From contig CAMJVU010000002.1 of assembly GCA_946409305.1 (NCBI GenBank), forward strand, positions 451 to 64,450: a stretch of 64,000 bases of DNA, given 5' to 3'. A model generated the notes under the pieces. The model was not told the DNA's origin. It saw only the letters and a program-made list of their open reading frames with translations, and searched no databases. The DNA comes from an uncultured Cytophagales bacterium (GTDB taxonomy: Bacteria; Bacteroidota; Bacteroidia; Cytophagales; Amoebophilaceae). Shown piece after piece: positions 1,235-53,430 of the stretch; within the stretch, counting starts at the first letter, position 1, and each line of letters opens with the position of its first letter. The translations under genes were made by a program, and so were the position numbers.

Positions 1235-1685
1235 CTACCAACAGCCACACCCTTTTCCCCTGGTAACAATCCGTCTTGGTTTCTCATCTAGTCGAATACC
1301 TCTACCACCCTCAGAATCTTTTTTACTTTCATTCTTACGGTAAATAAAATAAATCGTAACACTAGAATACTTACCACCACTACAAAAATTCAACAATAGA
1401 TCTTCATTTTCTGGCCTTTTCCCTTTAATTGGAACAGCTTCTAAACAGTCGGGGGACAATGAAAACTCCTCTGCAAAATCATTTCTTATCTTTTTAAAAG
1501 TAGTTCCGAGAGGGTATCTCCTATCCCGCATAACCCCACTATCATGTTCACACACGCACGGTTATCACATTATTTAAGATTTTTAAATCATCATCCAAAT
1601 CAGAATCCATATTTCCGTAAGTAACAACTAATCCGTATGTTACCAACACTACACAAACGAAATGCCATATTTTATTTGCCTTCAT
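1235..1685 (-). pseudogene. Split member of the MK(T/A)NK-leader small lipoprotein family (leader ORF 1548..1685 plus body ORF 1235..1555 in the next frame)
   Basis: An unlisted 45-codon ORF runs from the ATG at 1685: MKANKIWHFVCVVLVTYGLVVTYGNMDSDLDDDLKILNNVITVRV, ending at TGA 1548-1550. It overlaps track ORF 1235..1555, which is shifted by one nucleotide. The junction lies in the GT-rich tract GTGCGTGTGTG (plus strand 1549-1559). The lipobox Cys of the other family members is Tyr here. Confidence 0.55.
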
Positions 1686-3705: not shown

Positions 3706-3821
3706 ATAACGAGATAAAAAAAATCAACACCCAGTCGTACCAACCCGACCAGGGGCACTAATACAATAAAAAACTAGTGTTAGTTCGAATTCTGTGTGTT
3801 ATTACCTTGTGTATTAGGCCC

Positions 3822-3983
3822 TTAACACAAAATACAAGGGCATCTACTATCACTCTCCGGATTCTGATCCAAAGTATTATCACTATCAGTATCAATATCA
3901 TTATACATATTCCCACAAGCAACAACTAATCCGTATGTTGCCAACACTCCACAAATGAAGTGCCCTATTTTATTTGTCTTCAT
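3822..3983 (-). CDS. Small (53 aa) acidic lipoprotein, MKTNK-leader family, C-terminus CPCILC
   Basis: The internal ATG at 3983 of track ORF 3822..4097 gives MKTNKIGHFICGVLATYGLVVACGNMYNDIDTDSDNTLDQNPESDSRCPCILC. The lipobox is LVVAC. The track N-terminal extension is upstream leader read through. Confidence 0.7.
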   Translation of the reverse strand: MKTNKIGHFICGVLATYGLVVACGNMYNDIDTDSDNTLDQNPESDSRCPCILC

Positions 3984-4009
3984 AATTGTAACTTCTAAAA
4001 CCACGATAA
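3903..4009 (-). repeat. Conserved 5' cassette, copy A
   Basis: TTATCGTGGTTTTAGAAGTTACAATT-ATGAAGACAAATAAAATAGGGCACTTCATTTGTGGAGTGTTGGCAACATACGGATTAGTTGTTGCTTGTGGGAATATG. It differs from copy C at about 9 of 78 coding positions by hand alignment. Confidence 0.75.
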
Positions 4010-9429: not shown

Positions 9430-10011
9430 TCATTTATCATTTAGTTTCTTATCAAAAAAGACAAAAAATATAGCACCAAATATTATGCACAAGTCTGCTA
9501 CATTAAATATTGGAAGATGATGCACCCCTCCAAAAATTGGGAACCACTCCGGCAATATATTAATTGGTTCTGTACTAAAGCATAACATGTCTATCACCTG
9601 TCCATTAAACAACTTCATAGGAGCATAACTAGGAGCATTCCCTAACAATACACCGTAGAATATTATATCTATGCAATTACCAATTGCTCCACCCAATATC
9701 AATCCCGCTCCATACATTCTCAACCTCCTGTACAAGTATTGAGTAGAGTCGTAAAAAACTTTTTTAACCACATAATAAATCAGCGCAAAACGCAACAACA
9801 AAAGTATTAATTTCCAATGTTCCCATTCAAACACATGTCCCATGCAAATTCCTGGATTAGTTACGTAATAAAAGTGTACAAGACCCATATCCCTTAACTC
9901 CCCCAGCTTCATGTTAAAATGAACCCACAATTTGACGTACTGATCCAATATTACCGAACAGAAACACAGACAAATAACTAAAAATTTATCACGTCTTGAC
10001 ATCTCGCCCAT
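9430..10011 (-). CDS. lspA: Lipoprotein signal peptidase (SPase II)
   Basis: Four TM segments, with GGAIGNCIDIIFYG and FNVADLCIIFGAIFFVF matching the conserved LspA Asp-containing motifs. Confidence 0.85.
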   Translation of the reverse strand: MGEMSRRDKFLVICLCFCSVILDQYVKLWVHFNMKLGELRDMGLVHFYYVTNPGICMGHVFEWEHWKLILLLLRFALIYYVVKKVFYDSTQYLYRRLRMYGAGLILGGAIGNCIDIIFYGVLLGNAPSYAPMKLFNGQVIDMLCFSTEPINILPEWFPIFGGVHHLPIFNVADLCIIFGAIFFVFFDKKLNDK

Positions 10012-23733: not shown

Positions 23734-25077
23734 ATGTTTAATAATGATATTATCGTTGCACTAGCTACTCCTAATAGTAGAAATGGAGCTATTGCCGTGA
23801 TACGATTATCTGGAAGTGGAAGTATAAATTTGGTTAATTCATGCTTAAAGAAAAAAAATATAGACAAACAACGCAATCATTCTTTAACGATAAATACATT
23901 TCTTGATGGTGACAGTGACCTTGACGATGTCGTTATTTCAATTTATTTCAAGGGAAGTTCATACACAAAAGAGGAAAGTGTAGAAATATCCTGCCATAAC
24001 TCCGAATACATAATAAACAGGATAATATTAATCCTTATTAACAACGGTGCCAGGATGGCAGATCATGGAGAATTTACTAAACGTGCTTTTTTAAATGGGC
24101 GATTAGATATTACTCAAGCAGAGGCAGTCGCCGACATTATAGCCTCAAACTCTAAATCATCACACGATATAGCTATACAACAAATGAGAGGTAATTTCTC
24201 ATCGAAAATTAAGGATATACAATCAGATATTATAGAAATAGCATCACTTTTAGAACTTAATTTGGATTTTTCACAAGAATATGTCGAATTCACAGAACGT
24301 GATACGATAAAAAATAAGTTAGCCAATATAATCAAAGAAGTATCCTCTTTGGTTGATAGTTACAAGATAGGAGAAGTAATAAAAAACGGATTACCAATAG
24401 CCATAGTCGGAAAACCTAACGTTGGAAAATCATCATTATTAAACAGACTGTTAAAGGAAGATAGGGCTATAGTATCCCCTATAGCCGGAACTACCCGTGA
24501 TACTATAGAGGCCGAAATATGTGTAGACGGAATCAACTGTAGATTTATAGATACAGCAGGATTGCGAGATGATACTTGTGATGCTATAGAACAGATAGGT
24601 ATCGAAAGAACTAAAAAAATGATAGAAAAAGCAAAACTTATATTGTATCTTGTTGACATCAATACAAAATTGGAGGAATGTAAAGATGATATAGAGTACC
24701 TAGAATCGTCAAATAAAGATTTCAAAATTATATGTAATAAAATAGATTTGAAGGATAACTTTTCAAACATAGACAATAAACACATCTACATCTCTGTAAA
24801 AAATGATATTAATATAAACCAAATAACTGATTACATATCATCGAAATATGCCAAATCTAACGATGAAATAATAACTAACGCACGACATTATTGCACTCTA
24901 ACACAATGTTTACGTTCTCTACAAAATGCCTACGAAGAAATGTCAAATAACACCCCAGATGATTTAATTATGATAGATATCAGTAGTTGCATTGAAGATT
25001 TAAATAATATAACTGGACAATCGATATCAGATGAAATTCTTAATTCTATATTCAAAAAATTTTGTATCGGAAAATAA
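23734..25077 (+). CDS. mnmE: tRNA modification GTPase MnmE
   Basis: N-terminal DIIVALATPNSRNGAIAVIRLSG, G motifs GKPNVGKSSLLN, DTAGLR and NKIDL, and the C-terminal FCIGK. Confidence 0.95.
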   Translation: MFNNDIIVALATPNSRNGAIAVIRLSGSGSINLVNSCLKKKNIDKQRNHSLTINTFLDGDSDLDDVVISIYFKGSSYTKEESVEISCHNSEYIINRIILILINNGARMADHGEFTKRAFLNGRLDITQAEAVADIIASNSKSSHDIAIQQMRGNFSSKIKDIQSDIIEIASLLELNLDFSQEYVEFTERDTIKNKLANIIKEVSSLVDSYKIGEVIKNGLPIAIVGKPNVGKSSLLNRLLKEDRAIVSPIAGTTRDTIEAEICVDGINCRFIDTAGLRDDTCDAIEQIGIERTKKMIEKAKLILYLVDINTKLEECKDDIEYLESSNKDFKIICNKIDLKDNFSNIDNKHIYISVKNDININQITDYISSKYAKSNDEIITNARHYCTLTQCLRSLQNAYEEMSNNTPDDLIMIDISSCIEDLNNITGQSISDEILNSIFKKFCIGK

Positions 25078-52785: not shown

Positions 52786-53430
52786 CTAACACAGAAAACA
52801 CGAAGAACAGCCAAAACTACCTGCAGAACCATCTTTCTCTCCAACACCACCAATAGGTTTAATCTCACTACCACTACCACTGCTGGCTAATCCCCTCAGC
52901 TTACTGACAACCTCATCCCAATGATGACAACATTTTCCCGCTTCCTCATTAGCATTAAGAGACTTAATCATGCCATTAATCTCATCATTAGTTACACGTT
53001 TACCACAACCATTTAAGAAATCCTGAACAACATCATGAAGTACAAGATGATGTGTTGCGGCTAAATTTTTAGGAAGTTTATATTTGCTTCCTATATTATC
53101 TGATTTTACAAACTTACTGAATGATTCAAGGAAAAGACTATTCACTTTCATGGAGTCAAACAATATCGTATTTCACCCTTGATTATTAAACATACCACTC
53201 AACAAATCATCAAACCTAGCAAAATGCTCCAATATTAACTCCAAATCTCTAGTATCATCACCCTTTATCACACAGTCGAAATATTTCCCTAACCCTTCAT
53301 CGACCAAATATTGTTTGAATTTATCTTCCAATCCCTTATCAACAACTTCAGTCTTGTACAACTCTTGACAACAACCTACAACCACAAACACCCACACAAA
53401 CAAAACAATTTTTCGAATTTTCAAAACCAT
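52786..53430 (-). pseudogene. Secreted lipoprotein-like protein interrupted by one in-frame TGA; C-terminus CSSCFLC
   Basis: Track ORFs 53173..53430 (MVLKIRKIVLFVWVFVVVGCCQE..., lipobox VVGC) and 52786..53163 are in the same frame. They are separated only by TGA at 53173-53175 plus three sense codons (…FNNQG*NTILFDSMKV…). Confidence 0.6.

Follow-up and report, generated by a model that had tools for sequence, protein, structure and literature searches.

The 53-amino-acid (aa) open reading frame (ORF) at 3822-3983 raises the question of whether the cysteine-rich end of a bacterial protein is a signal for lipid attachment by the enzymes of a eukaryotic host. The window, that is, the whole stretch of 64,000 nucleotides (nt) that was analysed, comprises positions 451-64450 of contig C2 in the 703-kb, 27-contig genome of an uncultured member of the Amoebophilaceae (32% G+C, rated 96% complete). 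In a sequence-only reading of the window, four C-termini (SRCPCILC, GCSSCFLC, GKGCGCW and NFCRCF) were taken as possible host-prenylation signals resembling the C-aliphatic-aliphatic-X (CaaX) box. All four read as stated, and the SRCPCILC-stop of the 53-aa ORF is borne out by direct reading. The terminal cysteine tails of this genome are here tentatively regarded as thiol-lipidation anchors for host enzymes, only some of them prenylated; this is possible though short of probable, with the steps after export inferred. The parts of the flagged gene are as follows.

3822..3983, minus strand: 53-aa leader-family ORF with MKTNKIGHFICGVLATYGLVVAC leader, acidic 22-residue spacer and SRCPCILC end; TAA stop at 3822-3824
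3906..3983, minus strand: shared Sec-type leader of 26 codons, near-identical DNA in about 13 genes and recognisable in about 20
3825..3842, minus strand: codons for CPCILC, the CaaX-like C-I-L-C with two cysteines upstream
3783..3821, minus strand: relic of the old reading frame, 13 in-frame codons past the stop, reading GPNTQGNNTQNSN

The history of this end can be followed in homologues from metagenomes. Contigs from two other ruminant samples cover 3822..3983 with 4-5 differences each, and among the differences listed for the spanning contigs of samples X2 and X4 no variant falls within 3825..3842. The orthologue P0003, from another sample, has an identical CPCILC tail behind a variable spacer. 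Past CPCIF, P0008 runs on as GQ-GANTQGDNTQSLA, and P0033 reads SRCPCVL-GQ-EPNIRGNHTQ... for more than 60 further residues; the start of the called product of P0033 is nearly the same as the upstream ORF text of a 91-aa ORF of the window. The peptide encoded past the stop of the flagged gene has 8/13 ungapped identities to P0008 (shuffle P = 2e-5), and it is the only after-stop 13-mer with more than three identities among the 886 ORFs of the genome. The cysteine and stop of the flagged gene occupy the site of GQ in the relatives.

Together, the post-stop match and the GQ of the relatives indicate that the terminal position of CILC is derived, a recent truncation by a premature stop that is common to at least one other sample (P0003). 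The putative terminal signal in this gene arose by a single nonsense mutation beside a pre-existing cysteine cluster. The view that a CaaX box is the kept C-terminal signal of the gene does not survive the comparison, as P0008 and P0033 read past CPC[IV][LF] and P0009 stops at CPC. Judged from these alignments, the conserved unit is the cysteine cluster, CPC plus a hydrophobic residue, and the CaaX geometry is not conserved.

Whether terminal cysteines are more than a chance feature of the genome was assessed on 770 ORFs of at least 40 aa, with the last 30 residues shuffled as the null for CaaX ends. All ORF sets used here are crude greedy longest-ORF sets and not real gene calls. The claim that terminal cysteine motifs are non-random holds: cysteine is about twofold up at positions -4 and -1, and the tails of orthologues are conserved beyond their bodies. 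It is the most enriched residue at both positions (31 ORFs at -4 and 34 at -1, with a background over positions -5 to -40 of 18.4 +/- 4.2). At least two cysteines fall within the last eight residues of 23 ORFs, as against 12.8 in internal windows, and spurious ORFs have a flat cysteine profile. Two trivial sources of the tails were considered and rejected. A shared 3' DNA cassette or terminator is contradicted by the differing downstream sequences and codons. A G/T-rich drift at gene ends was dismissed as a general cause, as the last eight positions show no excess of F, L, V, W or G; among residues with G/T codons, only cysteine is enriched, at -1 and -4.

Conservation is concentrated in the tails. 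Across the orthologue pairs, which are few and non-independent, 7-8 of the last eight residues are identical, with body identities of 29-91%. The CPCILC pair keeps 8/8 tail residues over a body of 65% identity, the CCNWICFY pair 8/8 over 76%, the KKRKE[G/A]CILC pair 7/8 over 51% and the NCPCL group 7-8/8 over 29-69%.

The other three tails named in the sequence-only reading belong to the following ORFs.

52786..53163, minus strand: ORF ending GCSSCFLC, without its own signal peptide; no Pfam family and no paralogue in the genome
53173..53430, minus strand: same-frame upstream ORF with a signal-peptide or lipobox-like N-terminus; TGA end at 53173-53175
1235..1555, minus strand: ORF ending GKGCGCW; 8-nt overlap with the stop of the leader ORF 1548-1691, in a different frame
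33519..34178, minus strand: lysine- and glutamate-rich protein; lipobox-like leader (AMIVGC) and NFCRCF end

Positions 52786-53430 had been taken as one protein, but the in-frame TGA at 53173-53175 splits the signal-peptide part from the CFLC part. Reading of this TGA as a sense or selenocysteine codon was rejected: TGA ends 108/483 long ORFs, no selenocysteine tRNA is present and the sole tRNA-Trp has the anticodon CCA. It is thus an ordinary stop, and the CFLC ORF is therefore separated from its signal peptide in the present strain. The ORF with the GCGCW tail at 1235 is out of frame with its leader ORF, 1548-1691, which stops at the same place in P0034 (another sample). RNA-library contigs span 1200-1797, and in one strain a single nucleotide is deleted at 1451. 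The NFCRCF protein has a 90% identical orthologue with the same tail; a distant paralogue (C11:2703-3047) ends DCFPC.

A box with cysteine at -4, two mostly aliphatic residues after it and a permissive X is present in CILC (the flagged gene and a gene at C7:9011) and in CFLC (52786). The ends CGCW, CRCF and CPCL have their cysteine at a2 and are not canonical CaaX boxes. In the C7 tail, KKRKE[G/A]CILC, the box follows a polybasic run like that of K-Ras, which makes this tail the strongest of the CaaX candidates. Its box stays at the extreme C-terminus in homologues of 47-58% identity. In the present strain the gene (C7:8841-9496) is frameshifted, a 57-aa leader ORF overlapping a 161-aa CILC ORF by 4 nt; P0026, from another sample, is an intact 198-aa orthologue in a single frame. 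Polybasic runs stand ahead of two tails, KKRKE[G/A]CILC and GKKGKKEKSNKNCPCL. The tails occur on unrelated proteins, and a Pfam scan of ten tail-bearing proteins of the genome gave DUF285, on one of them, as its sole match.

The flagged gene belongs to a family defined by its leader, which is encoded at about 20 sites in the genome, about 13 of them nearly identical in DNA. No match to the family was found in 40 related genomes, and its homologues come only from ENA metagenome assemblies; in JGI metagenome contigs, a scan by protein pattern gave no match that could be confirmed, and one by the exact DNA of the leader gave no match at all. The cargos behind the leader are short and mutually unrelated, and they fall into recurring groups. 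The groups, and the one lipoprotein-pathway enzyme found, are listed below.

Leader cargo group: ...QSCLSKLYKKK
Leader cargo group: ...CTINPATWCNWGG...
Leader cargo group: ...polybasic-NKNCPCL
Leader cargo group: ...SRCPCILC
9457..9966, minus strand: signal peptidase II (LspA), the sole lipoprotein-pathway enzyme found (PF01252, 91.8 bits)

The label ‘lipoprotein’, given to the family in the sequence-only reading, is on shaky ground. The pattern [LVI][ASTVI][GAS]C is found as VVAC in the flagged gene and most paralogues, and LspA is present. Against this, Y or F replaces the lipobox cysteine in 6/~18 paralogues, and searches for Lgt (PF01790) came up empty in the present genome as well as in five more small ones from the same family (genera g3, g9, g11 twice and g12). 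Lgt is present in 42/47 relatives, and it may have been either lost in this subclade or diverged past detection. The label is uncertain because of these two points.

A steep rise in contig depth coincides exactly with 3906-4009 in each of the four runs, one of which is an RNA library. In that library (X6), depth is about 60-165 over the shared leader (window 3906-4009) and the contigs diverge exactly at 3906, which points to several leader-family paralogues in the library.

Genomes of the family range from 0.6 to 2.7 Mb, and the present one (G000) was set beside three others.

G000, the present genome: 0.70 Mb, 32% G+C; CaaX 4 vs 2.6; cysteine at -4 31 vs 18.4; at least two cysteines in the last eight residues 23 vs 12.8
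G015, same family, control: 1.06 Mb, 44% G+C, complete; no excess, cysteine at -4 24 vs 22
G017, another genus (loci L089-L125), partly fetched: 0.65 Mb, 28% G+C; at least three cysteines in the last 12 residues in 32/645 ORFs vs 3.1 expected
G021, a third genus (loci L144-L177), partly fetched: 0.56 Mb, 37% G+C; CaaX at the end of 10/276 ORFs with a length of 200 aa or more, 0.5 expected (P < 0.001); cysteine at -4 27 vs 13.5

The tails of G017 include GCCRCCKCCKKLT, CCCNRCCCNCCSVG and SKGCCCCC, with the poly-cysteine or basic types CCKCC, CCCCC and CCRCCKCCKK (example loci L102:9876-12158, plus strand; L109:767-1765, minus strand; L121:6720-7592, plus strand). The tailed ORFs form 23 similarity groups, most with hydrophobic, signal-like N-termini, one of the groups consisting of GT8 glycosyltransferases encoded in tandem. 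The boxes of G021 are canonical (CLLM, CLIM, CIIL, CVIL and CIIS). Nine of its ten CaaX ORFs encode accessory proteins (472-2377 aa), which Pfam hits and shared sequence place in about three groups, and the tenth looks like a housekeeping methyltransferase. Clear Sec-type leaders are found on 8/9 of the accessory proteins, one leader beginning MKTNKI, like the leader family of G000; 5/8 of the CaaX proteins scanned against Pfam are large WD40 proteins (example loci L153:12828-19961 and L163:3637-9069, minus strand; L165:1809-4349 and L165:6090-8309, plus strand). A homology search of the G021 CaaX proteins against the G000 proteins found none, and that of the G017 cysteine-tail proteins found only GT8 fragments and leucine-rich repeats without cysteine tails; the median protein identity between these genomes is 42-48%. 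A DNA pattern for CCxCC over 48 family genomes was discarded as too noisy, the inspected hits in three other genera (g6, g2) belonging either to a 45-aa element that is repeated or to short frames that are not genes. To judge from the sequences, a Sec leader combined with a C-terminal cysteine signal recurs in three genera, on unrelated cargos and in three flavours.

The sequence-only reading had pointed to a conflict with host prenylation, in that bacterial lipoprotein signals predict retention in the envelope unless the proteins are released. This objection is not disqualifying. The occurrence of CaaX boxes behind Sec-type leaders in G021 removes it, as an argument from architecture at least. 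In the window itself are genes for two USP-family deubiquitinases (PF00443), a eukaryote-type protein kinase (PF00069) and a protein with a weak TBC match (Pfam). The deubiquitinases and the TBC-like protein have hydrophobic N-terminal leaders, read directly from the sequence, and the kinase is also listed with one. In the deubiquitinases and the kinase, export leaders therefore coexist with targets found only in a host.

That host is probably the rumen ciliates, with the bacterium living inside their cells. DNA of the genome is present in sheep, cattle and goat gut metagenomes (13 studies). Very similar Amoebophilaceae genomes from rumen ciliates, of 0.53-0.6 Mb and 32-33% G+C, have been described in a preprint, encoding an extracellular contractile injection system (eCIS) and a TBC RabGAP-like protein (10.1101/2025.07.29.667580). 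One of these symbionts was observed within Epidinium cells (10.1101/2025.07.29.667580). Prenylation and lipoproteins are unmentioned in that preprint (10.1101/2025.07.29.667580), and no literature linking Amoebophilaceae to prenylation or cysteine tails was found.

The proposed sequence of events starts from the flagged ORF, a real member of a family of small exported proteins, about 20 strong, with one Sec-type leader. The functional element at its C-terminus would be the CPC cluster and not a CaaX box as such; in the present strain and one other, the nonsense change has made this cluster terminal. The tails KKRKEGCILC, CSSCFLC, CxC-F/W/L and NCPCL would then act as lipidation anchors once the exported protein meets the ciliate cytosol. 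Host S-acyltransferases would acylate the cysteine clusters, and a host farnesyl- or geranylgeranyl-transferase would prenylate those tails with true C-a-a-X geometry. As a result, the protein, or the bacterial surface bearing it, would be fixed to host membranes.

Host thiol lipidation is placed first because the tail occurs on unrelated exported proteins, because bacterial lipidation and thiol-oxidising enzymes were not found and because effector precedents are known. A tail common to many unrelated exported proteins behaves, on the present comparisons, like a sorting or anchoring signal. No bacterial DHHC enzyme or prenyltransferase was detected in the genome, in searches without a positive control. 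DsbA, DsbB, VKOR and Thioredoxin_4 were also not found in this 96%-complete genome, a Bacteroides control genome being likewise without them.

Several points weigh against this reading. The genome-wide excess of CaaX ends, the check named in the sequence-only reading, is absent, with 3-4/770 ORFs as against 1.7-2.6 after shuffling (P about 0.25), and one of the four canonical ORFs is ribosomal protein L15, ending CIVL. A terminal CxC plus hydrophobic residue is found four times against 0.2 expected, but this motif was defined post hoc; the cysteine enrichment as a whole is modest and the ORF sets are crude. In the flagged gene the terminal CILC is recent, and the distance from CPC to the C-terminus varies from 0 (P0009) through 1 (NCPCL), 3 (flagged gene) and 17 (P0008) to about 75 residues (P0033). 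Tail genes are broken in the present strain, by the TGA at 53173 and by the C7 CILC frameshift. The tailed proteins of the partly fetched G017 and G021 are non-homologous to those of G000, so that the comparison is one of analogy. In the flagged gene the RNA-library contigs reach the shared leader only, with none over the cargo-specific 3822-3905; contig-level read mapping is unable to show cargo expression, and this result shows nothing either way. To our knowledge, no route across the outer membrane is known.

Much of this would also suit an account in which the flagged gene and most of the window's four tails are functionless by-products of accessory-gene birth and decay in cysteine-rich small proteins, arising by nonsense changes, frameshifts and leader-cassette recombination, with a coincidental CaaX look. 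The CILC-stop came about via truncation with the frame relic still readable, the CFLC gene is split by TGA, the C7 gene is frameshifted and the canonical CaaX count equals the shuffled expectation. Housekeeping proteins also yield cysteine at -4 (L15 with CIVL; a 447-aa ORF with CIGK), and in a truncated outer-membrane barrel paralogue the CQYF end is accidental. Decay is nevertheless considered rather unlikely. The tails outlast the bodies in every diverged orthologue pair, and the truncated CPCILC allele recurs in a second sample with a diverged spacer. Moreover, the positional enrichment of cysteine is missing from the control G015 and from spurious ORFs, and two related genera have a massive excess of analogous tails.

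The retention of CPC or CxC at whatever distance from the end would be readily understood if the clusters were metal-binding or redox sites of envelope or periplasmic peptides, unrelated to host lipidation. Metallothionein tails, the redox-active CPC of Mia40 and the CxC tail of CopY offer resemblances. The export leaders, the internal cysteine pairs of other family cargos (e.g. C-x7-C) and the metallothionein-like look of the G017 CCxCC repeats fit as well. This role is unlikely, a shade more so than decay, in view of the same type of tail on 23 unrelated G017 groups and several proteins here, a distribution characteristic of sorting or anchoring signals and not of cofactor sites. The unambiguous CaaX boxes of G021 in the same architectural position also speak against it, as do flanking polybasic runs better suited to membrane than to metal binding and the thiol-oxidising machinery that was not found. 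That machinery bears equally on the proposal that intermolecular disulfides between the terminal cysteines tie small surface proteins into the bacterial outer membrane, in the manner of the OmcA/OmcB complex of Chlamydia, which is likewise rich in cysteine. The proteins are indeed small, exported and lipoprotein-like, from an intracellular bacterium, and a separate three-member family has a conserved terminal C-x6-C loop. Without DsbA, DsbB, VKOR or Thioredoxin_4 among the genes found, in what would be the reducing cytosol of an anaerobic ciliate, and with the canonical boxes of G021 left unexplained, cross-linking is very unlikely.

A broader form of the host-lipidation reading would embrace the small-genome Amoebophilaceae as a group. 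Here a modular Sec leader and a genus-specific host-lipidation tail (CaaX; poly-cysteine; CxC-hydrophobic or CaaC in the present genome) would put unrelated proteins on host membranes without type III or type IV injection. The smallest of them, with a mature part of about 30 residues and a possible N-terminal bacterial anchor, would be a two-ended tether between the bacterial surface and the host membrane. This extension is improbable at present.

In the literature consulted, host lipidation has been documented in Legionella, in Salmonella and in plant pathogens (Pseudomonas syringae among them), for effectors that are injected. The tail of Salmonella SifA has several cysteines among bulky hydrophobics in its last six residues, and CPCILC, CSSCFLC and CLCF share this pattern. 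SifA, a type III effector, has a folded domain, whereas the flagged product is about 30 residues long when mature and has an acidic spacer and possibly a lipid at its N-terminus. S-acylated cysteine clusters without prenylation are found in SNAP-25 and cysteine-string protein. The composition of the present tails would fit such anchors, a class without sequence consensus, and the likeness is one of resemblance only. In GobX and LpdA (PMC4951486), S-acylated clusters have cysteines beside basic residues with no strict consensus, which fits the CxC tails and especially the poly-cysteine of G017. AnkB, the Pel proteins and SifA are established substrates of host lipidation at a C-terminal cysteine, as GobX and LpdA are of S-acylation; SifA is doubly modified, by geranylgeranyltransferase I prenylation and by S-acylation on an adjacent cysteine (PMC4951486).

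AnkB, PelH and other Pel proteins of Legionella pneumophila likewise come from a protist-dwelling bacterium and have C-aliphatic-aliphatic-X ends, matched here by CILC twice and CFLC (PMC4951486; PMC2916131). Also shared is the lack of a detectable bacterial prenyltransferase, and one tail here follows a polybasic run. The Legionella effectors enter the host through Dot/Icm type IV injection and lack a Sec leader, whereas every candidate here has, or once had, a Sec-type leader. Furthermore, the canonical box is not enriched in the present genome and the flagged box is not ancestrally terminal. In its organisation the leader family is closer to Borrelia erp/mlp and Mycoplasma vsp/vlp, which likewise join a near-identical leader to unrelated, fast-evolving small cargos with many broken copies. 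Those families have no conserved C-terminal cysteine motif; here, Lgt is undetected and a third of the copies are without the lipobox cysteine.

If host lipidation of these tails is true, the trick would extend to Bacteroidota symbionts of anaerobic ciliates, and plain Sec-leader proteins would be shown to reach host enzymes. Leader and cysteine tail together would then be a simple sequence handle for the host-facing proteins of unculturable rumen symbionts. Three genera with three flavours of tail form a natural experiment on the origin of such signals.

Other cysteine-bearing ends occur in the genome. The three-member family (C1:100861-101079 and C7:36673-36912, plus strand; C20:5979-6236, minus strand) consists of 72-85-aa proteins with hydrophobic N-termini. 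Their conserved C-terminus, C[S/R]NLWGLC, forms a C-x6-C loop ending on the last residue. A protein on C15, open at the contig start, has (EEEK)n low complexity and three cysteine clusters (FCCACLCCC ... GCCCFCC ... ECYCF) with a 19-residue repeat between; it is the only G017-style tail seen in the present genome. The large DUF285 (PF03382) repeat family (C12:50-475, C1:83881-84558, C5:56657-57484, C1:104-3166 and others) includes several copies cut at contig ends or at stops inside a cysteine-containing repeat, giving accidental cysteine-rich ends (GECCFKQ, WGNCCF). The 447-aa ORF at window 23734-25077 (plus strand), which ends CIGK and was counted among those with cysteine at -4, resembles MnmE, whose conserved C-terminal C-I/L/V-G-K is no prenylation site. 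If it is MnmE, every screen for CaaX ends would pick it up as a false positive. Finally, short ORFs at window 30685-30852 (minus strand) and C5:51544-52032 (plus strand) have 35-61% identity to parts of the G017 GT8 glycosyltransferases and appear to be the remains of a gene family whose members in G017 are intact and have cysteine tails.

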